A DNA stretch of 64,000 bases. Source: Syntrophales bacterium. GTDB lineage: Bacteria; Desulfobacterota; Syntrophia; Syntrophales; UBA2210. A program made the position numbers and the translations under genes. The notes below the pieces were generated by a model. That model saw nothing but the letters and a program-made list of their open reading frames with translations, did not search any database and was not told the origin of the DNA. The DNA lies in assembly GCA_963666365.2 (NCBI GenBank), contig CAXXNF010000002.1:1792001-1856000 (forward strand), in the 5' to 3' direction. Shown here one piece after another: positions 42,145 to 58,678 of the stretch (position 1 is its first letter; each line of letters begins with the position of its first letter).

Positions 42145-42813
42145 TTATAAATAGAACAGATAAAAAACGGTCACAACAATAAAGATAAAAAGCAGCGTCA
42201 TTCCTCCCCCGGCTTTAACATAGTCTGCATTGCGATAGCCTCCGGCAGACATCAGCAGCGCATTGACCTGATGGGTAGGCAAAACAAATGAATGTCCTGC
42301 ACATACCGCTGCCATTCGCGCCAATGGGCGGGGATGAAACCCTCCAATTTGCGCCATACTCATCACAAGCGGCGCCAGTACTACAATAGCGCCCACATTG
42401 GACACGAACAGTGAAAATAAAGTGGACAACACCGCAACGGTCAAAAGTAAAAGCACAGGATGCTTTCCCTGAACCAGCATCATCATTTGCTCTGCTAAAA
42501 ATGCAGCGGCTCCGGTTTTCTGCATAGCGACGCCCAAAGGAATGAGCCCGGCGAGCAGGAAAACAACCTTCCACTCTATGCATTGATAGGCTTCCTGAAT
42601 ATCGAGCACCCCTGTCAGCACCATTGCAATTGCTCCAGTGAAAAATGCCATTGATATGGGGAAACCTGCCAGGGCGAACCCAATGGCAGCGGCAAAGCAC
42701 AGCACAGCAGCCCATGTTTTTGACGGATCTTTCTTTTCGATGGCAAAAGGAGTCGCCACCACAAAATTAGCATCCGATTTTAGATCATGAATCTTCCCGG
42801 CACACACGATCAA
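42145..42813 (-). pseudogene. C-terminal fragment of an SLC13/TrkA-C permease
   Basis: FLLAGLIPLGVAMQKTG, PTHQVNAL; N-terminal half is missing. Confidence 0.72.
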
Positions 42814-42914
42814 AATCAGAGCTTTTCGCGGCTACGCGAAAATACTCTGCATTTTTTGTTTGGACAATTTCCTTCTCCTGTCATTTCAGAATCCATTGAT
42901 GGACAAGAGGATCA

Positions 42915-42975
42915 GACCGGTAGATCAAGCCGCCTGTTCGTCCGCCACAGAAGACGAAAGTCGCGGCCCCGTTCA
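42915..42975. repeat. right part of the 62.04-62.19 kb element
   Basis: GACCGGTAGATCAAGCCGCCTGTTCGTCCGCC...AGTCGCGGCCCCGTTCA. Confidence 0.7.
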
Positions 42976-43037
42976 GCATAACCGGCTGGTAAAAGCTGCG
43001 CCGCTTCGCTATGCAGCTTTTACCAGTCCGAGTTAAT
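42976..43037 (-). other. attC-like site, same family as 560-631
   Basis: minus strand GCATTAACTCGGACTGG...CCAGCCGGTTATGC. Confidence 0.65.
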
Positions 43038-43061
43038 GCTGTTTTACTGCACCCATTTGAC

Positions 43062-43466
43062 CTACCTTGCAATTACATGGGTTGTGGTGACTTCAGCTAA
43101 CAGCTTATCTTTATTTCCAATCACACGGGTCCTGATAACAAGTACTGACTTCCCCTTACTCACAAATCGAGCCTCTGCCAAAATTTCTCCGTCTCTTTGG
43201 TTGCCGATCAGATTCGTATGAATATCTATTGCAAGAGGGAATCCTTTTCCGTTTTCCTCAATGGTTTGACCTTCAAGAGCAAGAACCGAAGCGGTAACAT
43301 CAGCCAACCATATCATCGCACCAGCCTGCACCGTGCCATAAGGATTCAAAACACCGGCGGTAACCGGCATACGACTAATAACGCAATCCGCGCTCCGCTT
43401 CTGGATATGAAAATCTATATATCCAGTTCTTTTAGCCGAGTTGATATGGTCTTGCAATTTACTCAT
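43062..43466 (-). CDS. PaaI-family hotdog thioesterase
   Basis: NPYGTVQAGA..LAD motif. Confidence 0.85.
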   Translation of the reverse strand: MSKLQDHINSAKRTGYIDFHIQKRSADCVISRMPVTAGVLNPYGTVQAGAMIWLADVTASVLALEGQTIEENGKGFPLAIDIHTNLIGNQRDGEILAEARFVSKGKSVLVIRTRVIGNKDKLLAEVTTTHVIAR

Positions 43467-43484
43467 GATTACTCCATCGGAAAA

Positions 43485-43556
43485 TAATTATCGATGTCTT
43501 CACCGACAGAAACGGAGTGCAGCGGAGTTTCTGCCGGGTGCGAGGCAAGGTTCACC
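43485..43556 (-). other. degenerate attC-like site
   Basis: R'' GGTGAAC contains the antitoxin stop codon; CAGAAAC/GTTTCTG stem. Confidence 0.5.
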
Positions 43557-43770
43557 TCTTTCTTCCTTCCCGAATAATATCCATTATTTCTTGTGTGGTA
43601 ATTTTTGCTTTAATTGAAGGCACATCCAGGGGGGAAGAAACGACTTTTTCCGGAACCAGCGCAAAGGTCCTGCCGTCCTTTCTTCGGATGAGTACTTTTC
43701 CCGTGTTTTCTGCCTGATCAAAAATCATGGAAAGTTCTTGCCGCGCTTCAGAATATGTAAAAATCCGCAT
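43552..43770 (-). CDS. Phd/YefM-type antitoxin
   Basis: TYSEARQELS...VLIRRKDG. Confidence 0.8.
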   Translation of the reverse strand: MRIFTYSEARQELSMIFDQAENTGKVLIRRKDGRTFALVPEKVVSSPLDVPSIKAKITTQEIMDIIREGRKR

Positions 43771-43855
43771 TTAAAACCTCCAGAGTTTCAACGTTACAAT
43801 TTGAGGCCGATGCGATCAGTTTTCTATCCAATGTCAATAAGGGAACCTTGCATCT
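43771..43855 (-). pseudogene. frameshifted C-terminal remnant of a PIN toxin
   Basis: PLLTLDR / LIASASNCNVETLEV directly upstream of the antitoxin. Confidence 0.45.
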
Positions 43856-43896
43856 GATTCAATCTTCAAAACCATCCCAGGATTATCGAACCTTTT

Positions 43897-43981
43897 TCCC
43901 TGTAGCCCGCGGCTTCTTGAACCATGGATTAGTACCGAGCTCTCGTTCCTCGACTCGGGACTAATCCTGTATTTGTTGGGC
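43897..43981. other. attC-like hairpin fused to an IS91-like end motif
   Basis: CCCTGTAGCCCGCGGCTTCTTGAAC + GGATTAGT/ACTAATCC hairpin + GTTGGGC. Confidence 0.5.
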
Positions 43982-43987
43982 AAATAA

Positions 43988-44653
43988 TCAGTTAACGGCG
44001 TTACCCTCTCTACCCAGCATAATACTCTGTGAGAATACCCAGATTATTGAAATAAAGAAAGCCAACCATTCCCAAATTACAGGTGTATTCCTACTGACCA
44101 TTCCTCGTTCATGGAACCCGACAAGGATGGCAAAGACTAAATATACAACCACCAACAGGAAGCACAAGAAAGGAAGAATTTTAGGAATACCTTTTAACGA
44201 TAATTCCTTAATGCCAATGATGGTTTGAAGAATGACAACGCCCAGAAAATATAGCGGGATACCCATTTTGTGAATTGCAGCAGACACATTATAAGGTACG
44301 GCGGTCATGATGACCGTGCCCGCAGTGGAAACCAAAGCAATCATTAGGGTCGTGACAATGAACGCCCGGCCTGCACCTGATTGGCCAAGCCGGAGGATTA
44401 ACAGGACAATAACAAGATACCGTATTGGTGCCGCAATGAGGGTGCCGGCATTGAATGTGATCTGCGGCCAACCAGCTGTGGCCCCAATATCACTTAAAAA
44501 TGTGCTAAAAATTGAGAAGTCTGAATGTCCTGGAAGATACACAAGAGTTGCAATTAAAACAACGAGTATTCCCCAAATGCCTGCGATTATTCCGACCAGC
44601 CTCAAAGCAGACGGAATATGAATAACTACTCTATTAATCTGATTTGCATGCAT
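43988..44653 (-). CDS. DUF998/Frag1-like membrane protein
   Basis: multiple TM helices; FLSDIG, IH, WEW. Confidence 0.65.
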   Translation of the reverse strand: MHANQINRVVIHIPSALRLVGIIAGIWGILVVLIATLVYLPGHSDFSIFSTFLSDIGATAGWPQITFNAGTLIAAPIRYLVIVLLILRLGQSGAGRAFIVTTLMIALVSTAGTVIMTAVPYNVSAAIHKMGIPLYFLGVVILQTIIGIKELSLKGIPKILPFLCFLLVVVYLVFAILVGFHERGMVSRNTPVIWEWLAFFISIIWVFSQSIMLGREGNAVN

Positions 44654-44709
44654 TTCTCACACCCAACGCTGGATTGTCCTCTGTGACACCCGGAGCATCA
44701 AAGTCGGTA

Positions 44710-45135
44710 TCACCTGGCTGGCTCGTCCGCCCAGGATTCATGTGAATGTATAATCTGCCAGCCCTGTTGACCTTTCTTCCATATCAGTGTGAATACATGT
44801 TCGGATATGGTAGTCTGACCGCCCTTCATCTGCATGTCGACCCTCTCTTGACTCGTGAGCAGGGCTGTATCCGGAGCAATAGGAGTAACCTGCACTTCGT
44901 GCAACTCCAAATACTGACTTTCTCTCATGGAGAAGTTGGACGCTATCACCTGAACCCAGTCACCTCGCGTGCCAAACAAGACTCCCCCTGCAACGGTGGA
45001 AACAAACTCATCCCTGCTATAGCATTTCTCCCAGAGAGCAATATCCTTCTGGTTTATTGCGGCTACCATCTGTGCAAATCTTTCAGTTACTTCCTTCACG
45101 ATGCGTGCCTTATCCAAGTCAATGGATGATTCCAT
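44710..45135 (-). CDS. NTF2/SnoaL-like protein
   Basis: FTLIWKK...WQIIHSHES C-terminus; an in-frame upstream signal-peptide segment (from 45231) is broken by a TGA. Confidence 0.8.
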   Translation of the reverse strand: MESSIDLDKARIVKEVTERFAQMVAAINQKDIALWEKCYSRDEFVSTVAGGVLFGTRGDWVQVIASNFSMRESQYLELHEVQVTPIAPDTALLTSQERVDMQMKGGQTTISEHVFTLIWKKGQQGWQIIHSHESWADEPAR

Positions 45136-45267
45136 GAGAGTCCTCCTTTCAGTGTTCCGAGTCCATTCAGCCAGTGCAGAAAGTCAACAGACAAATGTTG
45201 TCACAATAACTGCCAGGATATTCGTCTTCATGACTCTTGCCTTTTCCCTTCCACATCTCATTAGCGA

Positions 45268-45340
45268 ACATAACGCCTGTTTAACCCGCTTTTTTCAATG
45301 CGTAGCGGCGAAAAATATGGGGTTGAAACATCTGTTGAGC
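45268..45340 (-). other. attC-like site
   Basis: ACATAAC...TGTTTAACCC/GGGTTGAAACA...GTTGAGC. Confidence 0.7.
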
Positions 45341-45358
45341 CTGTCTTCCTTTAAAATT

Positions 45359-46105
45359 TTACAATTCGTACAGCCTCCTGTATTTGTCGTACTGACGTTT
45401 CAAAATATCTTTTCTCCGCTCCGATCCGTGAGCGGGAAGATAGATTCCGCAACCGGTATCGAGAAGTTTTTTCCAACTTTCAACCATCATTCCTACGTCA
45501 TCCGCGAATGGAGGAAATACCGAACCTGCAAAGACTCCAAACATCGCATCGCCAACAATGGCTATTTCGTCGTCGATTATTACGCTGATCGACCCCGGCG
45601 TATGACCGGGCGTATGGAGAATGTATCCGGGAAATCCAAAGGGTTCCAGTCCAAATTCCCCGTCCACCGAAAAATCGTAATCGGTCGGTTCGTATCCAAG
45701 CCGCTCAATCAGTTTTGTTTTGTACAATATTCTGCTCAAAATCTTTGTTAAAAACACTGTTCCGCCAATTCTTGGATTTTCACCATTCTTCAAATAGTCC
45801 CCTTCACTTTTGTGGACGATAACAGAAGCCTTGTAGGCTTTCTTGAATTTTGCTGCGTTTTCGGCATGATCGAAATGGCAGTGGGTCAATATGAGGGAAA
45901 CGGGCAAATCTTCTTTCACTCCAAGTTTACCGAGGTTTCCCTCCAGGCATTTCCAACTCTTTTCCCTTCCCGTATCTATTAGAAGAAATCTGTTTTCCTT
46001 TGAAACCAGATAACAATTGCACCTTCCCCACAAAACCCTGTGGATCATAACACCGTTTCTAGTAGTCCAGTATTTCATTTTTTGTACTGTTGATGCTCGT
46101 TCCAT
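45359..46105 (-). CDS. MBL-fold metallo-hydrolase
   Basis: THCHFDH, TPGHTPGS, GDA, PAHG; start placed inside the cassette boundary. Confidence 0.85.
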   Translation of the reverse strand: MERASTVQKMKYWTTRNGVMIHRVLWGRCNCYLVSKENRFLLIDTGREKSWKCLEGNLGKLGVKEDLPVSLILTHCHFDHAENAAKFKKAYKASVIVHKSEGDYLKNGENPRIGGTVFLTKILSRILYKTKLIERLGYEPTDYDFSVDGEFGLEPFGFPGYILHTPGHTPGSISVIIDDEIAIVGDAMFGVFAGSVFPPFADDVGMMVESWKKLLDTGCGIYLPAHGSERRKDILKRQYDKYRRLYEL

Positions 46106-46121
46106 AGAAATAGTAATTCCT

Positions 46122-46185
46122 ACCCAACGAAAGAGAACAGGGGGGCGGGTGGCAGCCCGCGTCCTTCTGGATTGAAGGGTGCGGC
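46122..46185 (-). other. attC-like site related to 62182-62245
   Basis: ACCCAAC...GCGGGTGGCAGCCCGCGTCC...GTGCGGC. Confidence 0.6.
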
Positions 46186-46188
46186 TCT

Positions 46189-46594
46189 TTAACAATTTAC
46201 CCGAATTACTTCAGCGTGCAATTTCAAGCCGAGGGCATGCAAAACTTTCAAGATGGTGTCAAACCCTGGGCTTCTTTCTCCAGAAAGCGCTTTGTAAAGA
46301 CTTTCCCTGGAAAATAGCTTTCCATCTGAACGGGCAAGAACCCAGATGTCGTTTTGTGATGGACGTGAACCTCCGGGTAATGGAAACCTGATGCTCTGGT
46401 AGAGCTAGTAACAATTCTGTTGATGGAAACTGAGTTTCAAGAACTGAAGCAACCTCTGAAGGGAAACCATTGGCCTCTTGCCATGAGTAAGCAAGGATAC
46501 GAACGGAATAGCCCTGTCGCCAGTGTTTGTCTGGCTCGGCCAGAAACTGCGCCCACTGCTCTGCGTTTGAAGTTTGGATATAAATTTTGCTCAT
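46189..46594 (-). pseudogene. DUF6946-like pseudogene
   Basis: LAEPDKHWRQGYS..LAYSWQ..GFP; frameshift before LPGGSRPSQNDIW; internal deletion. Confidence 0.6.
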
Positions 46595-46711
46595 GCAGCT
46601 ATAAACTCACTTCAGAGGGCTAGCAAGTCATTTATTCGGGTGTGTTATACAGAAACTACATAACGCACTCCCTCCCCGTACTGACGGTCACAATAATCCG
46701 AGCTGCTCGCC

Positions 46712-46752
46712 AAAAAACAAAAGCCCTGCTTCTCTTTTTGAAAAACAGGGCT
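46712..46752 (-). terminator. rho-independent terminator
   Basis: AGCCCTG...CAGGGCT followed by a U-rich tail on the minus strand. Confidence 0.7.
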
Positions 46753-46975
46753 GTTACCGGCAAGCCATATCTCCTCCTTTTTATCTCATACGAAGGACCA
46801 ATCTTTTGTGATTACATACACCTCATCGTATTGTTGTCAACTTATTTTTGCTATTTTGATGAAGTTCTTGCCTGTCCATCCAGTCAAAGGTACCTCTTTT
46901 CAAGAAAATTCAGGGTTAAAAAGGAATAACAATAGAAGGCCGCGTCAAATCAGTATAGGAGTCTGTATCTGGAAC

Positions 46976-47060
46976 ATTCCAGGGACAGTATACTTAATTT
47001 TACATCATCGGGTATTCACAAAGACTGCCTCAGTTGAATTAAGTATACTGTCCCTGGAAT
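46976..47060. mobile_element. 85-bp MITE/REPIN-like element
   Basis: perfect 24-bp inverted repeat ATTCCAGGGACAGTATACTTAATT around a 37-bp spacer; related to the RAYT IRs at 54249 and 54877. Confidence 0.8.
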
Positions 47061-47274
47061 TCAATTCAAAAAAGACCGACGCCGGTTTAAATTCGGGCGT
47101 TAGCGCCTTGATAATCTCGTCTTCTTTCCGGGTACGGTCAAGCGGAGCGAGTAGACGCACCGGTAACGCGCCATACACAATAAACGTGTCGGTTTCACAC
47201 AAAAGCGCTGCCGAGGTCCCGCTTAGCGCGATATGGCTGAAACGAGAACTGAATTGATATACTGGATTTACCAC
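47059..47274 (-). pseudogene. truncated 5' copy of the cyclodehydratase/YcaO gene
   Basis: near-identical to 53896-54111; cut at the MITE. Confidence 0.9.
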
Positions 47275-47291
47275 AGCAGGCAATCGGTCGG

Positions 47292-47543
47292 TTAACACCA
47301 AATTGAAGCTGCCACCCGCTCTTCCAGATTATCGAGGTTGGTCTCGCCTTCCTCCATATGCGGGATAACGAGGATCTCCTCGTTGGGGGCTTCTTCGAGA
47401 ACCCTGATTTTTACATAATCGGGAATTTCGACGTTCTCGCTCCTCAATACTGCGATTGGATCGCTGATGAGCCGTTGCTTGTACTCAGCATCGCCCCACG
47501 CTTTGGCTACAACCTTGGCCCACAGCTTGTTCATATCATTCAT
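47292..47543 (-). CDS. NHLP (nitrile hydratase-like leader) RiPP precursor; predicted core SIWC
   Basis: GGAGG RBS; VVAKAWGDAEYKQRLISDP..VL...IP leader signature; ends LEERVAA-SIWC. Confidence 0.88.
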   Translation of the reverse strand: MNDMNKLWAKVVAKAWGDAEYKQRLISDPIAVLRSENVEIPDYVKIRVLEEAPNEEILVIPHMEEGETNLDNLEERVAASIWC

Positions 47544-47660
47544 TACTGATACCTCCACTATGGAATTTATCTGCTTGCGAAGCAATCTTCTAGCAAGTTT
47601 AATATGTTGGCTCTATATCACCTGGGATATTGCAATGCAAGATTAAACTACATACTTCAG
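47520..47660. repeat. 141-bp direct repeat (promoter, RBS and first precursor codons), second copy at 54108-54248
   Basis: ungapped alignment with a constant offset of 6588. Confidence 0.9.
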
Positions 47661-47908
47661 AGTTGCAGCTCTGAGATCGTTTTTTCATCTGGAGCTATAG
47701 ATATGCCTTGACGAGGGATCAGAGATGTAGAATAAGTCAACAACTTAACATCAGAACGTTTCCGGGGTTCCCAACGTGCTTCTTTTTGGCCGCTGGTTGA
47801 CGCCTGATTTTGGGCAATGCTACAATTGCATCGGTCATGGCGGTAAGAAAGTGAATGTTTGATCCCGGTATGAGATGCGCCGAGCTGTCTTTTCCTATTA
47901 ACTGAATT

Positions 47909-50044
47909 ATGAAGGTTTCGGATATGAAGAACCGAAGAGTTATGCTTATAAACGCGTGTAATCCTCCGGTTAACCTCACCTATCCTTATTCATTTGTTCA
48001 AGTGGGCGAGGTGGCCGACCGCTTTGGAATTGTCATCCAGTCCATTGAACTCTTCGGCATTCCGGAAAATGAATGGGCGCAATTCCTGTGCTCCCGTCAG
48101 GAGGAATTTCGTCCGGATCTGATCGGAGTCACCCTCCGGAATACCGACTCCATGCTCTCCAGCGATTACATCCGGCGACCCCGGAACCGGGAGTATCTTT
48201 GCCCTTTTCAGGCCACCTTCTTAGAAGGGGCGCTGGAGGGGTTCTCTCCTTACTTTCCTGTCCACACCACCCGGCGACTGATTAAAATCCTGCGCCGAAT
48301 CACGGACCTTCCGGTCGTGGTCGGGGGCTACGGTTTCTCGGTGATGCCGGAACGTATGATGGATTTTCTTCGGCCCGACTACGGGGTGAGGGGCGGACCT
48401 GACGGCTTCTTTGAGAATTTCGAGGATATCCTCTCCCGCCAACGACTTCTGGAAGTACCCAATCTGCTCTATTGGGAGGGCGAGGAGCTTTGCGCCGGAC
48501 CGCTTCGTTTCTTCGGCCCGGCTCCACGGCGGGAATACAACGAGGAAAATATTCGAGACCGCGCCCGCTTCCTAGCTGCCCGCTATCTCCCAATTTCTCC
48601 CCTTTCCCGGTCGGTTCCGCTTGAGATCATCCGGGGCTGCCCCAACCGGTGTGCTTACTGTTCCGAACCCCTGGTCAAGGGCAGACAACTCCAGTACCGG
48701 GACCGGGAGGTGATCCGGGAAGAGATTGAGTTTCTGGGGCGGCACGGCTTGAATCTCCTCTGGTTCATCTGTTCGGAGATGAACACGGAAGGGAACCAGT
48801 TCATGCTGGAGCTGGCCGAGGATATGATCCGGATTAATGAGAAACGGGATGACGCTGAAAAGGTGAAGTGGTATGGGTACTATCTCCTTACCCTTTCCCC
48901 GGACGAGCTCGGTCTCTTGAGACGTTCGGGTTTCCTGGGGGGGTGGAACGATATCGTCTCATTAGATGATTCGAACCTCTCGCGGATGGGATTCCCGTGC
49001 CAGAGCAAGAACCAGATCGAGAACCTCTTTCAGATGACGGTTTTTGCCCGGGATGATTTAAAACGGAAGGGAAAGAAATCGATGACACCGGAAGAACGGC
49101 TTTTTTACGATCCGAACCATCGGGGCACCTTTGGGATGGATAATATCTGCAATCGCGGTTGGAGCCTCTTTCTCGGCAACCCGGAGACCACGGCCGAGAC
49201 CATCCGGATTACTCTGGAAAAGTTCGACCGGAAGGGATTAGCAGATTACTACGATGTGTGTTTTATCTCCCGGGCGACCAGGGTTTACGATTACATAGAT
49301 GGGATAGATCCGGAGCGCGACCGTCTCTGCTCTTTCACGCCCTCGGGTGCGGCGGCAACAGTTGATTATGTCAATCCTACCTTCTGTTTTCCGCATGATC
49401 TGCTCGCCCGGCTCGGTTCCCCCGAAGAGATAGAAAGCTTATTTACCTTGTTGGAGAATACCTATTTCTCCCGTCACCACCTATTTCAGAAGGATTGGAA
49501 CTGGTTTTTGAATCGAAACTCCAGCCCGGCGCGGTTCGGGAGAGCTTTCCGGGATGCTCTCTCCCGGGCTCGACCTCCCTTTCCAGGGGATCTCAGCCGG
49601 CTTGGTGAGGTGCGAAAATTTTTCGATTACCTGTCTGGAGATCCGTGCCCGGAACGGATCGGGTTGCTCTTCAATCCGACCCCCGGCCGGAAACACCTTC
49701 TTAATCTCGCCGCTTGGGGCGCCATTCGTTTTGTGCTCTCCCAGCACCGGGAAGAGTTGGCCCCGGTCCGGCAAATCTTGGCTCTGCCGGATTCTTACCC
49801 GGGTGGGGTGGAGCCCTCTGAGTTCCGGGTTGCCCGCTTGATCTATCGGCGGTTTGACTCCGAACGGCAGCTTCGAAAAGCTCTTCGTTCCGAACCCGGC
49901 CTCCGGCGGGGAAAACTTGAAGATCTTTTGCTGGAATATCTGCTCTATAGGAATAACCTGGTCTTACGGCCGGACTACCGCCCCTTTTTCCTGACCGAAG
50001 ATTCGTTCGGGGAGAGCGGGCTGGATGATGAAGAGTTAACTTAA
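47909..50044 (+). CDS. cobalamin-dependent radical SAM protein, TsrM-like
   Basis: LIGVTLRNTD and PVVVGGYGFSVMP in the B12 domain; CPNRCAYCSEP..KG; CSEMN. Confidence 0.85.
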   Translation: MKVSDMKNRRVMLINACNPPVNLTYPYSFVQVGEVADRFGIVIQSIELFGIPENEWAQFLCSRQEEFRPDLIGVTLRNTDSMLSSDYIRRPRNREYLCPFQATFLEGALEGFSPYFPVHTTRRLIKILRRITDLPVVVGGYGFSVMPERMMDFLRPDYGVRGGPDGFFENFEDILSRQRLLEVPNLLYWEGEELCAGPLRFFGPAPRREYNEENIRDRARFLAARYLPISPLSRSVPLEIIRGCPNRCAYCSEPLVKGRQLQYRDREVIREEIEFLGRHGLNLLWFICSEMNTEGNQFMLELAEDMIRINEKRDDAEKVKWYGYYLLTLSPDELGLLRRSGFLGGWNDIVSLDDSNLSRMGFPCQSKNQIENLFQMTVFARDDLKRKGKKSMTPEERLFYDPNHRGTFGMDNICNRGWSLFLGNPETTAETIRITLEKFDRKGLADYYDVCFISRATRVYDYIDGIDPERDRLCSFTPSGAAATVDYVNPTFCFPHDLLARLGSPEEIESLFTLLENTYFSRHHLFQKDWNWFLNRNSSPARFGRAFRDALSRARPPFPGDLSRLGEVRKFFDYLSGDPCPERIGLLFNPTPGRKHLLNLAAWGAIRFVLSQHREELAPVRQILALPDSYPGGVEPSEFRVARLIYRRFDSERQLRKALRSEPGLRRGKLEDLLLEYLLYRNNLVLRPDYRPFFLTEDSFGESGLDDEELT

Positions 50045-50200
50045 TGCCCGGTACCGCTGCAAAAAATCAGTATCTCGCACCAAAATCCACACTTGGCAGG
50101 GTTATGGTAAAATGTGCAAATACGTCCCACTATCCCATGTTTGGCTTCCGGCCCGATCATGAATCTGGGCGAGTTGTCCCTTGGTAGTCATTGGGGCCTA

Positions 50201-51910
50201 TTACAATTCAAAGTCGCGGTGCGTAACCGCATAATATTGGGAATAGACAAACCGCACCAGGACAACCAGGGCGAAGACCAGGGTGAGCGGCGCCAGCGCC
50301 TGTAGCAGTCTGTTCTCGGCCGCATGGTGCGTGATGAATTCATAGAACGGCAGCAGGAAAAAGATGACGGTGAACACGGTCCCGAGTAGGCCGTACCCCA
50401 ACAAGAACGCCCGGTTCACGCCCGCGAATTCTTCCGCCTGGGCCGGCTCGGTGGTACCGCACAACCGGAAGACCAGGTAGCGCAAGTAGCGGAAGGAGCG
50501 GGAGCGCAGGTTCTTGATCCCGGACCAATCCATGAGCACGTAATATCCGTCCAGGCGCAGGAACGGGTTGAGGTTGAAGAGCAGGGAGATATAGCAGATG
50601 CAGGCTAGGGCCAGCACGAGCGTATCGAGGCCCGGCAGTACGGACGAGATGAAAAAGCTGCACCAGAAAAGACAGCTGCCCAGGGCAAAAGTCGTAAGCG
50701 GACCGGCCAGGGAAATAATAGCCCGCTGCCGCCAGTCCTTTAAACGCCAGGAGGAAGAGACATCGCAATAGAAGATAAAGGCCGCCAGGTAGAACATTAA
50801 GCCGAGACGGTAGATGCGGCAGCCGTAATGTTTGCTGGCCACGCCGTGCCCAAACTCGTGGATGATGACGATGAAAAAGAGTCCCAGGTAGACCAGGGCA
50901 AACAAAGTCGGGTTTGAGGAAACGAGCAGCGGCAGGTGCTTGGCCTGTTCCACGATCCGCGTCTGGTCGAGCCACAGCGGCACCAGCCCGGAGAGTGCGA
51001 TCAGGAGCATCAGGAAAAAGCCGGCCGGCGTTGCCAGGAAGCCGAGGCTGTGGTACACCGCGGTGACGGCGCGGTCGGCGTGACGGATGGAAAAATCCGG
51101 GTTAAGAAACCGCAGTAGCACGCGTTTGGCGCCGGGGGTGGACCTTTGCCCTTCGGTCTCGTCCAGCATTCCTTCCGCTTCCAATTTTTTATAGAGCGCT
51201 TCCAAGCGAGAAGGATGGATGAGTCCGTGTTCGTCAACAAAGCGCAGGTAGAGCTCGCGCACGGTGACGCTGCCGTCGAAGCGGCTGGCGAACCACGCAT
51301 ACTGCCAGTCAAGCTCCAGAATCTTGCCGGTACCGGTATCTTTTAGCAGGGCTCTGCCCGGAGCGCCGCTGGCGGGCGGTTCTCCGCCGTCAACGATTAT
51401 GCGCGGCAACAGCCGCGGCGCCACGCTGAGCACCCAGAGCTGCTTTTCAGCATGGGCGGGTCGGAAGTATCGCTCCATAATAAACTTTTGCTCTTTGCTG
51501 CTTCGGAAAAGGCGGACCCGGTCCATCCAGTGCTTTACCTGATGCAGCCAGAGGGTGTCGGTGTTGATATCTTCCAGATCGATATCGCCGGTGCCCAGAG
51601 TGAATTCTCCAAGCAGTTCCGGGGCCAGGGGAAGCCCGTTGCGGTAATGTACTTCGATCCGTAGTTTTTCGGCCAGGATGGCCATCTCGATTTTGATTAC
51701 CTCGCCCGGCGCCTGCCGCAGCAGCTCGCCGTATACTTCTTCAATGGCCGCGAGCACGGCCTGGTAAAATACCGGCGACAGGTCTAAACGGTGCAGCAAT
51801 GTGCTGGCGAGGTCAAAGATCGTTGTGAAGTTGTCGGCGGTAACCTCGCCGGTATAGGTCATCCTGGTTGCGGTTGGGACCGCGCGGTTTGGTTTCACCG
51901 GCTTCGCCAA
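50201..51910 (-). CDS. M50 (site-2) metalloprotease fused to N-terminal HATPase-like and PqqD/RRE-like domains
   Basis: HEFGH, LAGP, NLNPFLRLDGYY; AAIEEVYGE...WMDRV; FDGSVTVREL...LEAEGML. Confidence 0.82.
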   Translation of the reverse strand: MAKPVKPNRAVPTATRMTYTGEVTADNFTTIFDLASTLLHRLDLSPVFYQAVLAAIEEVYGELLRQAPGEVIKIEMAILAEKLRIEVHYRNGLPLAPELLGEFTLGTGDIDLEDINTDTLWLHQVKHWMDRVRLFRSSKEQKFIMERYFRPAHAEKQLWVLSVAPRLLPRIIVDGGEPPASGAPGRALLKDTGTGKILELDWQYAWFASRFDGSVTVRELYLRFVDEHGLIHPSRLEALYKKLEAEGMLDETEGQRSTPGAKRVLLRFLNPDFSIRHADRAVTAVYHSLGFLATPAGFFLMLLIALSGLVPLWLDQTRIVEQAKHLPLLVSSNPTLFALVYLGLFFIVIIHEFGHGVASKHYGCRIYRLGLMFYLAAFIFYCDVSSSWRLKDWRQRAIISLAGPLTTFALGSCLFWCSFFISSVLPGLDTLVLALACICYISLLFNLNPFLRLDGYYVLMDWSGIKNLRSRSFRYLRYLVFRLCGTTEPAQAEEFAGVNRAFLLGYGLLGTVFTVIFFLLPFYEFITHHAAENRLLQALAPLTLVFALVVLVRFVYSQYYAVTHRDFEL

Positions 51911-54111
51911 TCGTCGAGCCGTATGCCGCAGTTCGAGTAGAAGAACGGGATGCGGCTCTGCTCTGCGGCGAGCCGGGGCGCCGGCAGCCAGCCGGCCCGG
52001 ACCGGCAAGTCGAAGAGGCGGGCGGTGGCGAACCGGGGCCAGAAGCGGCAGAGGCCGGGCACAATGACTCGCGTAACCACAAGCCCGTGCCCGGGCCGAG
52101 TAAGATCGATGGCCACGACCTCTAGGCCTAGCGCGGCACCGCGGGCCACCAGCAGTTCGATATCGTCTTTTAGGTTGCCGGTTTCCTGGCGCGGGAAATC
52201 GCTCGCTGTCCGTCGGGGCGCGTTAGCGGGGGCGACAAACGGTTTGGCCCAGAGTGGTTCCGGATCGTACTGCAAGCAGAAGTCGTGGAGCCGGAAATGG
52301 GGGGTCCAGTACCAAGACTGGCCCAACTCGGTGACGGCTCGATTCAGGGCGATGCCGGGATCAAGGTCGGCACCGAAACCCATTCGCGGGATCTCGCTTG
52401 GATTCGTGCGGTGGCGCGCCACTGCGACCACCACAGGCACATTAAAATCGTGGGTCAGGTCGAGAGCGTAGAAATCCCAGCCGTGCCGATCAAGATAGGC
52501 GCCCAACGGTTGCATTTGGGGCAGGGAGAAGGAATCGAGATCGAGCGCTGGCCGGGGGATCTGGTTGCACCACCAGATTGTGGCCGCATCCCGCTCAATT
52601 ACCTCGAGAAAACCGTGCAGCAGCGCTTCCTCAAGGCACCCACCCGAGGCTAGGCCGTTGGTGGCGGCATCGGCATAGTTTGTGCCATCCTCAGGAGGAA
52701 TCGAGAAATAGACGAAGGAGCGGGGCACCAGGCGCTTGGCCCGGTGGGTCAGGGACCAAGCTGGCGTCCAGGTTAGCTTCATGTCCGGTGCAAAATTGCC
52801 GGGGCCGAAGACGGGATCGGGCGGGCGGGTCGCGGCCCACTCCAGGTAGTCTGTTTCGTCGCAGCCGTAGATGCGGTGCGGCGGAACGGCTTCCCCGGCA
52901 ACTTCCGCATAACACGCCTGCACTACCGGTTCGTCGCCGCGATAGTAAGCCGAGGTCCGTTCGATCGCCTCGGCCACTGCGCTCAAACGCCCCTGCAGCT
53001 TCGTGAAGCCCTTGCCGTTACCGCCTGTGGGAACGAGGGCGCGCTTACGGTCGAAAAACCCAGCGTCGATAGGTACCGAAAAATGCGCGAGATGCGGGTA
53101 ACCGAATTCCGGCGGTACGCCGGCGAGCGGCGCCACGCGCTGCACAATCCCGGTGTGCGGGCTGATAAGCGGTTCGAGACTCGCCATGGCCTCCGCCGAG
53201 TCCCGGATGCGCAGACCGTTCTCCCGTGAGAGCTGACGGGGACGGGAGGTCAGGGTGAGCGGGGGCCCACTGTCGGGCCGGGCCCGGCGGGGGGCGCAGG
53301 TTTGGCATTGGCTGTCGTTGTCGACGCGATGGCAGCGTAGCGCTGCAGTGGCCAGATCGACGGTTACCAGGTGACCGCTAAATGCCGCGGCGGCCGGGCC
53401 GGTACCGGTTTTGCCTATTTCCGCCGCGAGCAGTTTGAACGTCGCACTGAGCGAGGCCTCCGAGCGTTCGCGGGAAAGGCGGAGCGGCTGGCCCGAAGTG
53501 CTATGGTCCAAGTGCCAGGCTTCAAGGCTGTGATTGCGTCTCAGCCGGGATATCAGACAGCCAAAGCAAGGATCGCCGTCGTGGCCGAAGCGCGGTCCGA
53601 ACCAGGGAACGCGGCCGACCGCCTTTACCGGGAGCCAAGACTGGCCGTGACTCCGGCTTGTGGCAAATTCGGCCAACTGCGGATCAAGGTAGTCGTCAAT
53701 GATGACTATTCTGAGCGGCAAGGGAACTAGGGCGGCCAAGTAGTGTTGCAAAAGCGGGCCAGCGCTGGGTTCCGTTCCTAAATCCACGATTTCCGAGAAC
53801 GCGTTTTTCCGGCTGGGCATTGCGTTGGCCGCGGTTAGCGGCCGCTTCGCGGCCGCGCTGCCGCCGGTCTCGAGGAAACCACCGTCGTGTAGCCGATTCA
53901 ATTCAAAAAAGACCGACGCCAGTTTGAATTCGGGCGTTAGCGCCTCGATAATCTCGTCTTCTTTCCGGGGACGGTCAAGCAGAGCGAGTAAACGCACCGG
54001 TAACGCGCCATACACAATAAACGTGTCGGTTTCACACAAAAGTGCTGCCGAGGTCCCGCTTAGCACGATATGGCTGAAACGAGGACTGAATTGATATACT
54101 GGATTTACCAC
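51895..54111 (-). CDS. fused TOMM cyclodehydratase (RRE, E1-like and YcaO domains)
   Basis: WFGPRF..PCFGCL, CQTC, AEAIER, TNGLASG..LEEA....EVIERDA, VIVPGL. Confidence 0.92.
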   Translation of the reverse strand: MVNPVYQFSPRFSHIVLSGTSAALLCETDTFIVYGALPVRLLALLDRPRKEDEIIEALTPEFKLASVFFELNRLHDGGFLETGGSAAAKRPLTAANAMPSRKNAFSEIVDLGTEPSAGPLLQHYLAALVPLPLRIVIIDDYLDPQLAEFATSRSHGQSWLPVKAVGRVPWFGPRFGHDGDPCFGCLISRLRRNHSLEAWHLDHSTSGQPLRLSRERSEASLSATFKLLAAEIGKTGTGPAAAAFSGHLVTVDLATAALRCHRVDNDSQCQTCAPRRARPDSGPPLTLTSRPRQLSRENGLRIRDSAEAMASLEPLISPHTGIVQRVAPLAGVPPEFGYPHLAHFSVPIDAGFFDRKRALVPTGGNGKGFTKLQGRLSAVAEAIERTSAYYRGDEPVVQACYAEVAGEAVPPHRIYGCDETDYLEWAATRPPDPVFGPGNFAPDMKLTWTPAWSLTHRAKRLVPRSFVYFSIPPEDGTNYADAATNGLASGGCLEEALLHGFLEVIERDAATIWWCNQIPRPALDLDSFSLPQMQPLGAYLDRHGWDFYALDLTHDFNVPVVVAVARHRTNPSEIPRMGFGADLDPGIALNRAVTELGQSWYWTPHFRLHDFCLQYDPEPLWAKPFVAPANAPRRTASDFPRQETGNLKDDIELLVARGAALGLEVVAIDLTRPGHGLVVTRVIVPGLCRFWPRFATARLFDLPVRAGWLPAPRLAAEQSRIPFFYSNCGIRLDDWRSR

Positions 54112-54248
54112 AGCTTATTCATATCATTCACTACTGATACCTCCACTATGGAATTTATCTGCTTGCGAAGCAATCTTCTAACAAGTTTAATGTGTTAGCT
54201 CTATATCACCCAGGATATTGCAATTCAAGATTAAACTACATACTTCAG

Positions 54249-54900
54249 GGAATTCCGGGGACACCTTACTTATCTCTTTTTTTAGATCCAGGGCTTTGAT
54301 GCTTAAGTCTTCGGCCCAAAAGGTGTTCCATTGTCCCAATAAAAGAATCAGTTCCTAAGGGCCGACCGGTTCATTCGTGTTTTCTAAATAACGCTATTTC
54401 CTGATCCTGAGCATCAAAGGACAAGAAGTCTTCCCAAGGCTCATTTACTATTTCCAGCAATGGCTTTGTTTTTACAAGGATATCATCTTTGCCTTTCATA
54501 TGTGGACTGGCACTACTCCATTGCCAGTCGCCAGGCTTTTTTTTCACCAAGCCTGCCCGAACAGGATTTACTTCCACATATCTAGTACATGCTAAGAGAT
54601 ACCCCTCATCCATGATAAAAGATGAAAACCTTCCCTGCCATAAGTGCCCACGCCATCCTTCACGAAAATTGATCCATCCTGTGTATCTTCTGTGCGCTTC
54701 ACCAATTGCCTGATTCAAACCTTCCTTTGTTTCAGGTACAACAATCAATCGTTGAAAAATGTGTGCTTCTGCCTGTTTTCTTAGTGTGTTACATGATGCG
54801 GGATTCCCGGCGCTATTGCTCTTGCTATTCGTGCCATGTTTAGAATCAATCAAACTGGCTGGCTTTTGTCAATAATTAAGTAAGGTGTCCCCGGAACTCC
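54249..54900. mobile_element. defective RAYT (REP-associated tyrosine transposase) element with 24-bp terminal inverted repeats
   Basis: GGAATTCCGGGGACACCTTACTTA at 54249-54272 and its inverse at 54877-54900 (1 mismatch). Confidence 0.8.
54266..54837 (-). pseudogene. RAYT/IS200-like transposase pseudogene
   Basis: MARIARAIAPGIPHHVT..., GHLWQGRF, RYVEVNPVRAGLV, WQWSS, RKHE*TGRPLG; stops plus an internal deletion that removes the HUH motif. Confidence 0.82.
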
Positions 54901-54927
54901 CAAATAAACATATCTATTTCACTTTCA

Positions 54928-55009
54928 ACCTAACGTCAAACCTAACGCGCGAGGGAAGGCCAGAGCGAAGCGGCGGCCTTCACTCGTCGCGTTCAGGTTC
55001 TTGTTGGAC
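54928..55009 (-). other. attC site
   Basis: ACCTAAC...AACCTAACGCG/CGCGTTCAGGTT...GTTGGAC; R'' is complementary to R' at 58679-58685. Confidence 0.85.
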
Positions 55010-55940
55010 GTCTCCTTGATGGAGCAGTTTCCTGGCTTCTTCGACGAACCCTTGCAGGTTGGGTGCCGCTGGAGGATCGTCGAGCAGTGCCTGAAGCGTC
55101 TTCTTCGCGTCTGCCACTGAGCCCCGGTGATACTACAGAACTCCGAGCGCCAGGCGGAGTTGCTTCCTGTCAGGGAAGTGGGCGATTGACTGGGAAATGA
55201 AACTGACGCATTGGTTTATCATCTCTTCCTCATATGAGGTCTTCTTGGCAAGGCCGAGACGGTACTGGTCCCTGGACCGTCGCAGGTCGCCAGTGAAGTT
55301 GTAGAGAAAGGCTAGTCCGAGGTTGCCGATGGAAGCGGCTCGCGGAGCCAGCAGATCAGCTTTCTCTTCCGCTCTGATTGCTCCCCTAATGTCCCCGGAG
55401 AGAAAGAGATAGATAGCTCGCGAGTTCTCGTGAATGGAGTTCTGGGGATCGAGTTTGGCCGCCTGTGTGACGTTCTTCAGCCACGCGGCGAGCAGATTGG
55501 GCGGGATGTCGTATATCTTTCCCTCAACTAACCACTTCCTGTACTGGTCGCCCGTTGCCATGGTCAGGGCATAAGCCAGATCAAACTGCACCTGCATCTG
55601 GAATCGTCTTACGGGAAGCGAGGTCTTCTTTGGGAACGCAGCCCTAAGATCCACGTGCAGCGGTCCCAGTATCTTTGCAGCTTCATCATGTCGTCGGTCG
55701 ATCAGCAATGCCAACCCAAGGACGTTGCGCACGACGATACCAATATCCTTGGCAACAAGTCGCTGGTCAGCGATTCGTGTTCCCTCACGTACGTGAAGTT
55801 GACGCTCAACAAGCGACATCGCCAACGTTTCGTGGCGTGAACGGTGGATGCGTGCAGGTCGGTGCACACAGGTAATGGAGATGTCAATGGTCTTTTAAAA
55901 ATGAGCCATTTTCGGTCGTGAAAACTGAGCCACTCGCCTC

Positions 55941-56711
55941 TTAACCATGGTCCATTTTTTCCTCCCCTTGCTCAGTGTTTTTCCGAAGTCTGTAACTGTT
56001 GCCCCGGATATTTATTATAATGCTGTGATGGAGCAGGCGATCCAGAAACGCCGTGACGATGACCGGATCGTGAAACAGCTCGGTCCAGTCGGAAAAGGCC
56101 TTGTTGGACGTGATCACAGTGCTGGCCTTCTCATAGCGGTTGGCAATGAATCTGAAAAAAAGGTTGCATTCCTCTCTGTCGATTGGTGTATAGCCGACCT
56201 CGTCAACGATCACCAGTGCCGATTTGTAATAGCTTCTTCCTCTGCCTTTGCGTCCTGCCTCGTGATCTTTTTTCAGTTTCCCGATTAGATCCTCCATCGT
56301 CGTAAAGTAAATGCTCATGCCCGCCTGACAGGCCTTCAATGCGAGAGAGACGGCCAGGTGGGTCTTGCCCACGCCCGGAGGCCCCAAAAAGATGACATTC
56401 CCTTTCTCACGGATAAAGGTCAGATCGAAAAGCGACATGACTTTCTGACGATCCAGCTTGGGTTGAAAGGTAAAGTCGAATTCATCAATGCTCTTGATAA
56501 AGGGGAGCCCCGATATCTTCAGCGCCGTTTCCACCCGTCGCTGTTCCTTGCAGGCGATTTCCTCTTCCAGCAGTTCGTCGAGAAAGGAAAGATAGCTTGC
56601 GCTTTTTTCCTCGGCCGTTTTGGTCGCCTGTACAAGTATGGCGCCCATTCGGGAGAGCCGAAGCCGCGTGAGACTGGACTGTATGCGATCGACAAGCAAT
56701 GTCTCGTTCAT
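55941..56711 (-). CDS. istB: IS21 helper ATPase
   Basis: GPPGVGKTHLA Walker A; DEVGY; TSN; DRLLHH. Confidence 0.95.
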   Translation of the reverse strand: MNETLLVDRIQSSLTRLRLSRMGAILVQATKTAEEKSASYLSFLDELLEEEIACKEQRRVETALKISGLPFIKSIDEFDFTFQPKLDRQKVMSLFDLTFIREKGNVIFLGPPGVGKTHLAVSLALKACQAGMSIYFTTMEDLIGKLKKDHEAGRKGRGRSYYKSALVIVDEVGYTPIDREECNLFFRFIANRYEKASTVITSNKAFSDWTELFHDPVIVTAFLDRLLHHSIIINIRGNSYRLRKNTEQGEEKMDHG

Positions 56712-57967
56712 AGGCCCATCTCCCCGACGAGCGAGTCATACAGCGCTGTGGGACGGATTTCAACGTCCATGGTGGCATAGGACGACTTCAAGGGACTGAT
56801 GGTGCATTTGGCGCGTCCCTTACCGTGTCTGCCCCGGCCATATTTGCGCTTGTTCATCTCCCGGTCTTTTCTGAGCGCCTCGTAGAAGCGGGGATCTTGG
56901 ACCAAGTTCCCCTTGCCTTCCGGAATGTCGTACGTCGCCAACAGGCAATCGTCGTGGAATATCCGCATGCATCTGTCCTTGACCCGTAAAATCAGATGCT
57001 TCCCCACCACGGTATGGGGCACTACATAACTGTTGCCTTCGAAACGGACCAGGCAGTCCTTGCTGACCTTGCGGTACACGCGGTACGACGTATCGAAAGG
57101 GCGGGAAGGCAACGCCTGTAAATGAGGAAGTTCGCGGGCGAAACGGCACGCTACGACTTCATGGGTGGTGCCGTGCACACGCTCGTCTTTCATTGCAATC
57201 CATTGCTGAAGATCTCGATTGGCCGTTGTGAGACACACATATCCGTACCCCCTCCAGAACCCTTCACGGATGAAATGGTAGGGCCGCTCGACTTTTCCCT
57301 TCACCCAGGCGGCATAGGCGGGGGCAACCGCCGGTTTGAACCCATTATGCAGCGCAAAGGCCATCAGCGTGTCGTTGAATCGATCTTTGCCGGCCAGTTT
57401 CCCGATGAACACGTTTCTCATGCGATCGTAAAGTATCTCCGCCGGGATGCCCCCGAAATGTTCGAAGGCGCGAATATGACAATCGAGAAAGGTGGGCAGG
57501 TCGCATCGCTCAATGAATTCGCCATACAGTTTTCTGGAGTATCCCAGAATCATTGAAAACAGATAGAGCTTCTTGACGCTCCCGTCGGCATTGGCAACCT
57601 GGAATTCACCAAAATCCACCTGCGCCTGAAAGCCCGGCTCCGTCTCAAACCGCATATAGGCCACGCGCTGTTGTTCCGCTTTGAGCTGATGCACCTGCCT
57701 TTTCACGATTTCATAACTTCCGGTAAATCCCATTGCACGGAGCCGATCATAGAGCAGGGTGGCCCTGTACTCGCCGTCTTCCTCCAACCATGCCGCAATA
57801 TTGTCCCTATAGGGATCTACGAGACTCTTGCGCTTCGCCTTCTCTCTCGTAACTCCCTGATCCCCTTGATTCTCTATATACTTCTTCACCGTGTTCCTGC
57901 TGATCCCCAGCTTCCGTGAAATGTGCCTCTGGCTCAGTCCTCTTCTCTGTAATAACAATATGTCCAA
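56708..57967 (-). CDS. istA: IS21 transposase
   Basis: N-terminal HTH; RFETEPGFQAQVDFG; KGKVER. Confidence 0.95.
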   Translation of the reverse strand: MDILLLQRRGLSQRHISRKLGISRNTVKKYIENQGDQGVTREKAKRKSLVDPYRDNIAAWLEEDGEYRATLLYDRLRAMGFTGSYEIVKRQVHQLKAEQQRVAYMRFETEPGFQAQVDFGEFQVANADGSVKKLYLFSMILGYSRKLYGEFIERCDLPTFLDCHIRAFEHFGGIPAEILYDRMRNVFIGKLAGKDRFNDTLMAFALHNGFKPAVAPAYAAWVKGKVERPYHFIREGFWRGYGYVCLTTANRDLQQWIAMKDERVHGTTHEVVACRFARELPHLQALPSRPFDTSYRVYRKVSKDCLVRFEGNSYVVPHTVVGKHLILRVKDRCMRIFHDDCLLATYDIPEGKGNLVQDPRFYEALRKDREMNKRKYGRGRHGKGRAKCTISPLKSSYATMDVEIRPTALYDSLVGEMGL

Positions 57968-58678
57968 AACGGTCTCCTTTTTTTCAAATCAGCCACCTCG
58001 ATTACTCTGAGATAAATAACCATACTTTACTCATTCATCTCATTAACTCCACCTCTAAGTGGCTCACTTTTAAACGACCATTTTTGGCTCAGTTTATCAC
58101 GACCATGAACAGGAGAGCTTGGAGAACCCTGTTGTCTTCCCATCAGCTGACTCCTGCTGCTCAAATGGCCCCCAAACAGCAACAACGCCACGGGATTCCC
58201 GCAGCATGCGCGTGGCCTCTTCTGCTGAGTCCAGAGAAAGGTTGGGAGGTAGGCGCTTGAGATGGAACCGCACTCCCAGTTCATGGGACTTGATCTCTTG
58301 CCTCAGATGGACAAACAGTCGGTCTATCACGTCCTGTGTGGCTGGTGCTGCATTGGGGGCGAAGAGAATACCAAGCTCGTTCCTCTTGAAACGTGGAACC
58401 GAGCGAATCCGGGACCAGAACCCCGCAGCGATGAAAGGCGCGAGAAGGAACCCAAGCAGATAGAACGCACGACACCACCCGAGTGCCCCGTCGCAGCCCA
58501 AGGAATTCAGCAACAGTACTACGTCGCGGCCGACTGCCCGCACAACACCGTAGTAGAGCGCTTCGGCCGCCAGCAGGAGCACAACCAAGCCGTCAGCGAA
58601 GTGCAGCCTTTTCCGGAGAAACTGCAGGATGTCGATCGCCTTGTCCATGGTTGCGACTGGTTCTCCTTCTTTTCCTCC

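Follow-up and report, generated by a model that had tools for sequence, protein, structure and literature searches.

We report a candidate gene cluster for a peptide that is made by the ribosome and then modified post-translationally (RiPP), in which a long leader carries a core of only four residues. The cluster lies in a 64,000-nucleotide stretch of a Syntrophales bacterium genome (GenBank assembly GCA_963666365.2, contig CAXXNF010000002.1, positions 1,792,001 to 1,856,000 of the forward strand; hereafter, the window). Its segment, 47059-54248, holds four intact genes, which encode a nitrile hydratase leader peptide (NHLP) precursor, a YcaO cyclodehydratase, an M50 protease and a radical S-adenosylmethionine (SAM)-type enzyme. 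We consider it likely that this is a real RiPP cluster with a genuine four-residue core, SIWC. Judged by sequence comparison, the pairing of an NHLP leader ending R-x-A-A with a protease that joins RsbW-like, RiPP recognition element (RRE) and M50 domains is a widespread NHLP (proteusin-type) subfamily. An earlier sequence-only reading of the window had named an 83-residue NHLP peptide ending LEERVAA-SIWC, a fused YcaO and an M50 protease, and profile hidden Markov models (HMMs) confirm all three families. The four genes are as follows.

47292..47543, minus strand: NHLP precursor (TIGR03793), the only intact copy, 83 residues made up of a 79-residue leader and SIWC, followed by TAA
51895..54111, minus strand: fused RRE / E1-like / YcaO cyclodehydratase, 738 residues, GTG start (PF02624, TIGR03604, TIGR03882)
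50201..51910, minus strand: membrane protease, 569 residues, with an RsbW/SpoIIAB-like domain (about 13-150), an RRE (about 165-250) and an M50 site-2 protease domain (PF02163, fold model)
47909..50044, plus strand: TsrM-like cobalamin / radical-SAM-type enzyme, 711 residues, divergent from the precursor (family profile)

The precursor and its four-residue core

The precursor gene has a GGAGG ribosome-binding site 7 nt ahead of its ATG. Its product scores 59.7 bits against the NHLP model TIGR03793 (cut-off 50.9), or 59.4 bits in a search of the 4.0-Mb genome, in which it is the sole NHLP match. The C-terminus reads ...NLEERVAA-SIWC-TAA; the leader ends in VAA in place of the Gly-Gly cleavage motif. 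A word-indexed search with the precursor returned the window's own protein only, and a HMMER search of 1.84 billion representatives gave 1861 matches at E <= 0.001. Among the best 150 of these 1861 matches none exceeds 50% identity to the precursor, and an E-x-R-x-A-A motif followed by a short core is a common ending among the 39 short ones that were retrieved.

The nearest precursor found (locus L081, 53% identity) ends IEDRIVA-SYWT-stop, and the next nearest (P0269, 45% identity, a longer form of P0164) ends EERLAA-TLWT. Over the three precursors, which are independent genes, the core follows the motif [ST]-x-W-[CT], with Trp as the sole invariant residue. In L081 a YcaO gene begins 57 nt after the precursor, and its start is 47.6% identical to residues 1-63 of the window YcaO, compared with 26-35% for other YcaO proteins. 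No closer [ST]xW[CT] precursor was found in 401 genomes of the host phylum, where the best other match scores 89 bits against 153 for the precursor itself. Because the two closest precursors also stop after four residues and share the pattern, these comparisons indicate that the four-residue core is genuine and not the result of a premature stop. The sequence-only reading had proposed a RiPP cluster with an ultra-short core, to be abandoned if homologues carried long cores; the endings SYWT and TLWT uphold the proposal.

A family of R-x-A-A precursors and RsbW-RRE-M50 proteases

A metagenome scan with 8 aligned precursors yielded 73 loci, in which precursors were classed by the residues before the core and partners were counted by HMM and tblastn. 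An R-x-A-A-type precursor is present in 31 of the 73. Homologues of the window's M50 protease accompany 14 of these 31 (12 of the 17 that span at least 6 kb) and none of the 42 other loci, Gly-Gly types included (0/24 at 6 kb or more). Counted among the 14 are loci matched only partially, at a contig end (L088, L091), and one matched in two pieces (L092); all counts are of loci, not independent events, with near-duplicates such as L083/L084, L089/L090 and L105/L108. Where the match covers most of the protein, E-values are about 1e-76 to 1e-90 at 30-36% identity. YcaO is present in 11 of the 31 R-x-A-A loci. Other partner enzymes are YcaO together with a ThcOx-type dehydrogenase (L086, L102, L112), a SPASM radical SAM enzyme (L099) and an unrelated 528-residue B12 radical SAM enzyme (L084).

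The 56 distinct R-x-A-A cores range from 1 to 25 residues in length, and 13 of them have six residues or fewer: C, IW, LF, SYWT, FIFK, FQTAS, WMTWW, WFFPK, WWQTFV, WNHFFV, FFGAPS, FFGVPS and FFGIPE. Of the 401 sampled host-phylum genomes, 19 match the protease N-terminal module at E <= 1e-8 and 7 of these at E <= 1.6e-81, the window's own genome included. At the six other loci with strong matches an NHLP gene lies beside the protease in three and YcaO is present in three, and radical SAM or dehydrogenase genes occur in all four host-phylum loci that were scanned with Pfam.

In the open-access literature searched, we found neither the pairing of R-x-A-A NHLP precursors with an RsbW-like/RRE/M50 protease nor a TsrM-like gene in such an NHLP cluster. 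Among the papers listed in the same searches, none dealt by title or abstract with a cluster of an NHLP or proteusin and an M50 protease, none brought together NHLP, YcaO and an intramembrane metalloprotease, and the RRE-Finder and RRE-definition papers do not mention 'M50'.

Two family loci show how short the core can become. On a contig of 33% G+C content (GC), a precursor with a single-Cys core (...EKRIAA-C) adjoins an M50 homologue (L092:3980-5963 and neighbours), together with two pyridoxal-phosphate enzymes (Cys/Met metabolism and PALP), a methyltransferase and broken AMP-binding fragments; this locus has the look of a scaffold on which one amino-acid derivative is built. In a complete host-phylum genome (L174, G077:C1:2779000-2798900, about 3900-11600), an NHLP protein ending GERLAA-VI, with a two-residue core, is accompanied by an ABC transporter, two radical SAM genes and an RsbW-RRE-M50 protease.

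The protease and the cyclodehydratase

The protease scores 42.7 bits against PF02163 and carries the motifs HEFGH and NPFLRLDGYY. Its true start is probably the ATG at 51862, as placed by alignment of homologues. An AlphaFold model of residues 1-320, made with 9 aligned homologues (mean predicted local distance difference test score 73.6), predicts two further domains. Residues about 13-150 match RsbW/SpoIIAB anti-sigma kinases (6m36_A, template modelling (TM) score 0.87 on the target), and residues about 165-250 match a leader-bound lasso-peptide RRE (6jx3_B, TM score 0.66, probability 1.0, E 0.049). In addition, the daptide protease HMM NF041824 covers residues 187-551 at 173.4 bits, below its cut-off of 300. 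Fold match and HMM together support the RRE that the sequence-only reading had placed in this protein, which has the architecture of an RRE-fused M50 protease: a PqqD-like RRE N-terminal to an HExxH / NPxxxxDG membrane domain. Four homologues give weak matches to Pfam HATPase_c_2, and in the homologue alignment neither the Asn nor the Gly-rich box for ATP binding is present in the RsbW-like domain. On the predicted model, the RsbW-like domain may serve to dock the folded NHLP leader.

The YcaO protein is the only one in the genome. It scores 278.9 bits against PF02624, 88 against TIGR03882 (cut-off 36.9) and a borderline 221.5 against TIGR03604 (cut-off 219.25), gives a weak winged-helix match at its N-terminus, and retains the four zinc cysteines and the conserved Glu/Arg motifs. 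Neither a SagB-type dehydrogenase (TIGR03605) nor a C39 peptidase (PF03412) was found in the 4.0-Mb genome (94% complete), and no ABC exporter was found among the open reading frames (ORFs) scanned at 29990..63232. The absence of these three functions, noted from the sequence alone, is thus borne out within those limits.

The TsrM-like enzyme and its place in the cluster

The 711-residue enzyme matches the Pfam models B12-binding (24.2 bits, cut-off 32.1) and Radical_SAM (25 bits, cut-off 29.5), in both cases below threshold. Its CxxxCxxC motif (C244/C248/C251) is invariant in its family. In a comparison of the family profile with solved structures, TsrM (6wte) comes first at 97.8 bits, followed by CysS at 34 and TokK at 18. 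TsrM, from the thiostrepton pathway (PDB 6wte/6wtf), is the best solved relative over the cobalamin domain and the cluster motif; it differs in having 575 residues instead of 711, and the similarity ends at about residue 290. The enzyme scores 58.1 bits against the TsrM equivalog TIGR04428, well under the cut-off of 500. A cluster labelled 'Tryptophan 2-C-methyltransferase family' is among its nearest in a language-model atlas (0.95), which is a lead only. For the assignment to cobalamin radical SAM enzymes made from the sequence alone, the invariant motif and the relationship to TsrM speak in favour, and the two domain matches lie below threshold.

Residues R77 and E290 align with TsrM Arg69 and Glu273, and both are invariant in 25 family members. 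In TsrM this pair holds the cobalt in a five-coordinate state and keeps SAM away from the cluster, and Glu at this position is common in radical SAM enzymes, so that only the Arg discriminates (PMC8992657; published systems are given here and below as they appear in excerpts of the papers cited). The enzyme is plausibly an indole C-methylase. Methylation of the core Trp, which the sequence-only reading had put forward, is likewise plausible, given the TsrM-like nature of the enzyme and its retained counterparts of Arg69 and Glu273; we give this step somewhat less than an even chance. The enzyme's role is the weakest link in the pathway, because RiPP genes are missing from all 66 loci of its family.

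That count, which refers to NHLP, YcaO or M50 within 8 kb (tblastn; HMM on six-frame fragments), is one of several observations that speak against a role in the cluster. The family is also absent from all 73 precursor loci and from the 6 host-phylum protease loci, and TsrM itself acts on free tryptophan. A real possibility, to which we give about one chance in three, is that the pathway consists of precursor, YcaO and M50 protease and that the TsrM-like gene is a passenger of the mobile segment acting on a free small molecule such as tryptophan. The passenger reading is in keeping with heterogeneous neighbours in the 10 family loci scanned, with one member fused to MbtH, adenylation and carrier domains (which points to an amino-acid substrate), with closest relatives that stand as single genes in Asgard archaea, and with a GC of 51-61%, below the 57-73% of the YcaO gene. 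On the other side, the gene shares the GC-rich segment bounded by repetitive extragenic palindromic (REP)-like elements and lies divergent, 323 nt from the precursor; the core's sole invariant residue is Trp; and assorted radical SAM enzymes have been recruited elsewhere in the precursor-protease family, including the unrelated B12 type in L084. We therefore keep the enzyme in the proposed pathway as its least certain member.

The closest relatives of the enzyme, at 38-44% identity, are mostly from Asgard archaea, the others from Myxococcota, Streptomyces and cyanobacteria; searches of 61 related genomes gave only distant matches of at most 58 bits. The single-gene relatives (L015-L024, L042 and others) come from Hodarchaeota, Heimdallarchaeota, Thorarchaeota and other Asgard lineages, with no conserved neighbours in the scanned loci. 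The fused member (L026:7907-11962) appears as one 1351-residue frame with MbtH-like, adenylation and carrier-protein domains, in a record labelled UNVERIFIED_CONTAM Amycolatopsis.

Rearrangement of the segment

All four genes that the sequence-only reading had assembled into one cluster are present, and a rearrangement that separates the precursor from YcaO had been overlooked. The outer limits then given, 47059 and 54248, coincide with the far ends of two diverged direct repeats, the first pairing 47059-47277 with 53896-54114 (96% identity) and the second pairing 47520-47660 with 54108-54248 (94% identity). The features concerned are the following.

46977..47059, no strand: inverted pair of REP-like 20-mers (TAAGTATACTGTCCCTGGAA) forming a long hairpin, the left segment boundary (REP pattern, RNA fold)
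47059..47277, minus strand: dead duplicate of the first 73 YcaO codons (RRE winged helix), directly after the precursor
47520..47660, minus strand: repeat copy a, with the upstream region, the ribosome-binding site and the first 8 precursor codons
54105..54131, minus strand: remnant of a second precursor, the mini-ORF GTG-NDMNKLW-TAA, left by an in-frame deletion; its TAA overlaps the YcaO GTG start
54108..54248, minus strand: repeat copy b, with the same upstream region and ribosome-binding site, which here serve the mini-ORF and YcaO (repeat comparison)
54253..54896, minus strand: REP-associated tyrosine-transposase-like gene (54371..54853) between inverted REP-like 20-mers (54253-54272, 54877-54896), the right segment boundary

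Read on the minus strand, the left copy runs from the upstream region through the precursor to the first 73 YcaO codons and ends at the REP-like hairpin. The right copy runs from the upstream region through the remnant to the full YcaO gene; its precursor has been removed in frame from codon 9 on, between two GCTGTGG words. The sole precursor is in consequence 6.8 kb from the intact YcaO and adjoins the YcaO stub, which looks dead: its translation shows six amino-acid changes, including two Leu-to-Pro, and its homology ends at the REP hairpin. Since the TAA of the mini-ORF overlaps the GTG of YcaO, translation of YcaO is probably coupled to that of the mini-ORF.

The left hairpin folds as RNA at -41.4 kcal/mol (z = -6.7), and the REP-like 20-mer pattern has 4 matches in the window where 0 are expected, none of them away from the segment boundaries. 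The gene at 54371..54853 is a weak match to the REP-associated tyrosine transposase (RAYT) model NF047646 (35 bits, under the cut-off of 80). GC is 51-73% within the segment and about 45% outside, which is consistent with horizontal acquisition. Taken together, the rearranged cluster has probably been horizontally acquired and is probably still working.

The arrangement is not an assembly artefact, because contigs of three other studies cross the junctions. The deletion junction is spanned by contigs X3 (2023 nt, 4 differences) and X5, which come from two of these studies, and the junction of the REP hairpin with the stub by contig X4. The precursor stretch, 47206-47652, is covered only by the run that may be the source, and no inference is drawn from it. 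Two YcaO variants in other samples, P10S and E56K, match the sequence of the dead stub, a hint that the repeat copies have undergone exchange (gene conversion). Contig X5, from a sediment metagenome, carries an in-frame 24-nt deletion at 53827, in the YcaO linker (residues about 90-100).

Three further lines were followed in this region. Dating the repeat divergence, so as to use the intact frames as proof of selection, was dropped, since two of the differences between copies recur as variants in other samples and the divergence is not a clean clock. The idea that the precursor and the YcaO RRE were swapped in as a low-GC unit (GC is about 0.50 within the repeat and about 0.60 immediately beyond) led to no conclusion, as similar swings occur elsewhere in these genes. 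A promoter and terminator scan of 46800-48000 gave counts not above those of shuffled sequences (3 vs 2.3; 1 vs 1.0).

Several observations weigh against a pathway that still works. One is the rearrangement itself, through which the precursor no longer stands in front of YcaO. The YcaO protein keeps 74 of 98 positions conserved in 30 relatives and differs at 24, the most in the set. It also extends 14 residues beyond the family's C-terminal ...IPFF; in fused cyclodehydratases a free proline-rich C-terminus is important. The M50 protease differs at 34 of 104 positions that are invariant in 8 relatives. The fifteen differences seen in other samples, 9 non-synonymous and 6 synonymous, indicate only weak constraint, and the cluster is known here from its genes alone. 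The deviation of YcaO and M50 may reflect an outlying lineage, changed specificity for the tiny core or relaxed selection.

A different possibility is that the cluster is a decaying remnant whose product is no longer made, which we think unlikely. Duplication, loss of one of the two precursor copies and a dead stub of YcaO would all fit decay, as would the flanking REP/RAYT-like and IS21 elements, the position of YcaO and M50 as the most deviant proteins in their alignments, the YcaO extension and the largely non-synonymous strain differences in YcaO (6 of 8). Yet neither the three large frames (711, 569 and 738 residues) nor the precursor is interrupted, and catalytic motifs are in place. The deletion left the frame unchanged and preserved the overlapping stop and start by which YcaO translation is probably coupled, the indel in another sample is in frame (24 nt), and the same arrangement persists across samples of several studies. 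A cluster that is rearranged and still working remains our preferred reading.

Other readings of the stop codon and the protease

It is very improbable that the TAA after SIWC is a nonsense mutation that shortened an original 12-residue core, SIWC-x-PTDCLLW, whose own in-frame TAA overlapped the YcaO start. Such a history would explain why seven more codons are open, with Thr and Cys among them, and end in a GTGGTAA start/stop overlap, why the other copy's deletion preserves the frame of this second stop, and why some relatives have cores of 10-13 residues ending CW or CAW. Against this, both closest precursors stop after exactly four residues, and the continuation (PTDCLLW-TAA) has no counterpart in L081, where the YcaO gene simply follows; an open stretch of seven codons is expected by chance in about 70% of cases.

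Hardly any more credible is a role in regulated proteolysis, in which an RsbW-like sensor joined to the site-2 protease would trim a C-terminal cap from an NHLP-like protein and expose a ...LAA degradation end: the RsbW/SpoIIAB-like fold and the one- or two-residue cores of some members (C, IW, LF, VI) suit it, but many family loci carry the YcaO, azoline dehydrogenase and radical SAM genes that are a signature of RiPP biosynthesis, cores are Cys-rich and hypervariable with several precursor copies in family loci, and the RsbW-like domain has no intact ATP-binding boxes. The leader end (consensus E-E-R-L-A-A, precursor residues 75-79) does resemble the ssrA degradation tag, and by analogy the ...LAA end left after cleavage could mark the spent leader for removal.

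Comparison with known systems

NHLP precursors as originally defined end in Gly-Gly, are accompanied by ABC/C39 exporters and carry a core of about 26 residues (Haft 2010; PMC2887384). A close precedent for the window cluster is formed by the srp clusters of sponge microbiomes (SrpE, SrpC, SrpI), in which an NHLP with the five-residue core LCCCW receives YcaO thiazolines and is acted on by a leader-dependent Trp brominase, SrpI (PMC10858898). Like the window, srp combines an NHLP/proteusin leader and very short core with YcaO and a further enzyme directed at the Trp side chain, which in srp depends on the leader. The differences lie in the leader end, VAA in the window against a Gly-Gly boundary marked for MprE7 in the same paper; in the Trp enzyme, a flavin halogenase in srp against a TsrM-like protein, with no brominase among the segment's four genes; and in the RsbW-like/RRE/M50 protease and [ST]xW[CT] core of the window.

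The Mpr system (MprE1-10, the YcaO MprC, the flavin mononucleotide oxidase MprD) shares with the window an RRE-bearing fused YcaO and structured NHLP leaders of about 81 residues (PMC12455567). It differs in having ten precursors with 2-6 azolines each, an oxidase and a Gly-Gly boundary, whereas the window has one precursor with a four-residue core, and an oxidase gene was not found in its genome. In daptide biosynthesis, MpaP/DapP (NF041824) likewise places an RRE N-terminal to an intramembrane M50 protease that removes the leader (PMC10036551). The window differs in the extra RsbW-like N-terminal domain and the NHLP-type precursor, and no daptide enzyme is encoded by the segment's four genes.

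M50 proteases also act in epipeptide and pearlin pathways, and in pearlins, where a tiny product is built on a long ribosomal peptide, an M50 protease (TglG/TmoG) releases it (PMC10885120). Cittilins, which are tetrapeptides, and crocagins are likewise products of 1-4 residues from a much longer ribosomal peptide. In the excerpts used, these three families differ from the window in having unrelated leaders, relying on biaryl coupling, pyrroloindoline formation and aminoacyl-tRNA ligases, and lacking an NHLP leader with YcaO; a LanB-like peptide aminoacyl-tRNA ligase of the pearlin kind has no match among the segment's four proteins. The sequence-only reading did not recognize the combination as a described class. 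In view of the srp clusters and the daptide RRE-site-2 protease, the window cluster is better described as a variant that appears to extend both precedents and not as a wholly new class.

Proposed pathway and significance

We propose the following pathway, which as a whole we judge rather more probable than not, its steps being of unequal certainty. The precursor would be expressed from the left repeat copy, and YcaO would be translated by coupling to the 8-codon remnant ORF. YcaO would bind the leader via its N-terminal RRE and, in an ATP-driven reaction, close Cys4 onto the Trp3 carbonyl to give a C-terminal thiazoline; it may also close Ser1 onto the Ala(-1) carbonyl. Since a dehydrogenase gene was not found, both rings would remain at the azoline stage. 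The TsrM-like enzyme would methylate the invariant Trp, probably at indole C2. The M50 protease would use its RsbW-like and RRE domains to dock on the folded leader and cut at, or one residue before, A79|S80, which may free a product of 4-5 residues at the membrane. The earlier suggestion of a tetrapeptide with an oxazoline at its N-terminal Ser, released by cleavage behind VAA, conflicts with azoline chemistry, because this ring requires the Ala(-1) carbonyl.

A far-reaching version of this pathway is attractive though doubtful. Here a 79-residue NHLP scaffold of a reusable type would build an azoline-capped 2-methyl-Trp peptide of 4-5 residues by means of the first TsrM-type non-radical methylase shown on peptide-bound Trp. 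The R-x-A-A/RsbW-RRE-M50 family would more generally provide a platform on which 1-6 C-terminal residues (C, IW, LF, VI, FIFK, WMTWW, FFGAPS and others) are made into small metabolites, following a pearlin-like logic without aminoacyl-tRNA ligases. If the proposed pathway holds, the srp-type logic of a long folded leader and a tiny azoline/Trp core would extend to a new leader end, protease and Trp chemistry, and a large, easily mined precursor-protease family with many cores of 1-6 residues would become accessible. Non-radical cobalamin methylation would gain in known scope if a TsrM-like enzyme acted on a peptide. As a speculation, a tetrapeptide-sized product with a C-terminal thiazoline carboxylate beside an indole might serve as a signal or metal ligand.

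Neighbourhood of the segment

To the right of the cluster an IS21-type element occupies 55941-57967, with IstB at 55941..56711 and an IstA-like transposase at 56708..57967. Further on, a gene with a Cap15 cyclic-dinucleotide receptor domain, an effector of the type used in cyclic-oligonucleotide-based antiphage signalling system (CBASS) defence, lies at 58734-59420 among unannotated genes, and an HNH endonuclease with homing-endonuclease repeats lies at 61113..62162; the region around 58734-62162 looks like a variable island. On the left, a 111-residue ORF at 46259-46594 adjoins the REP hairpin; it is probably a truncated gene, since only the first 69 of 214 positions of the DUF6946 model are matched. 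Upstream, on the minus strand at 39487-42062, lie sulphur-transport genes (two split ORFs) and rhodanese/metallo-beta-lactamase genes, which appear unrelated to the cluster.

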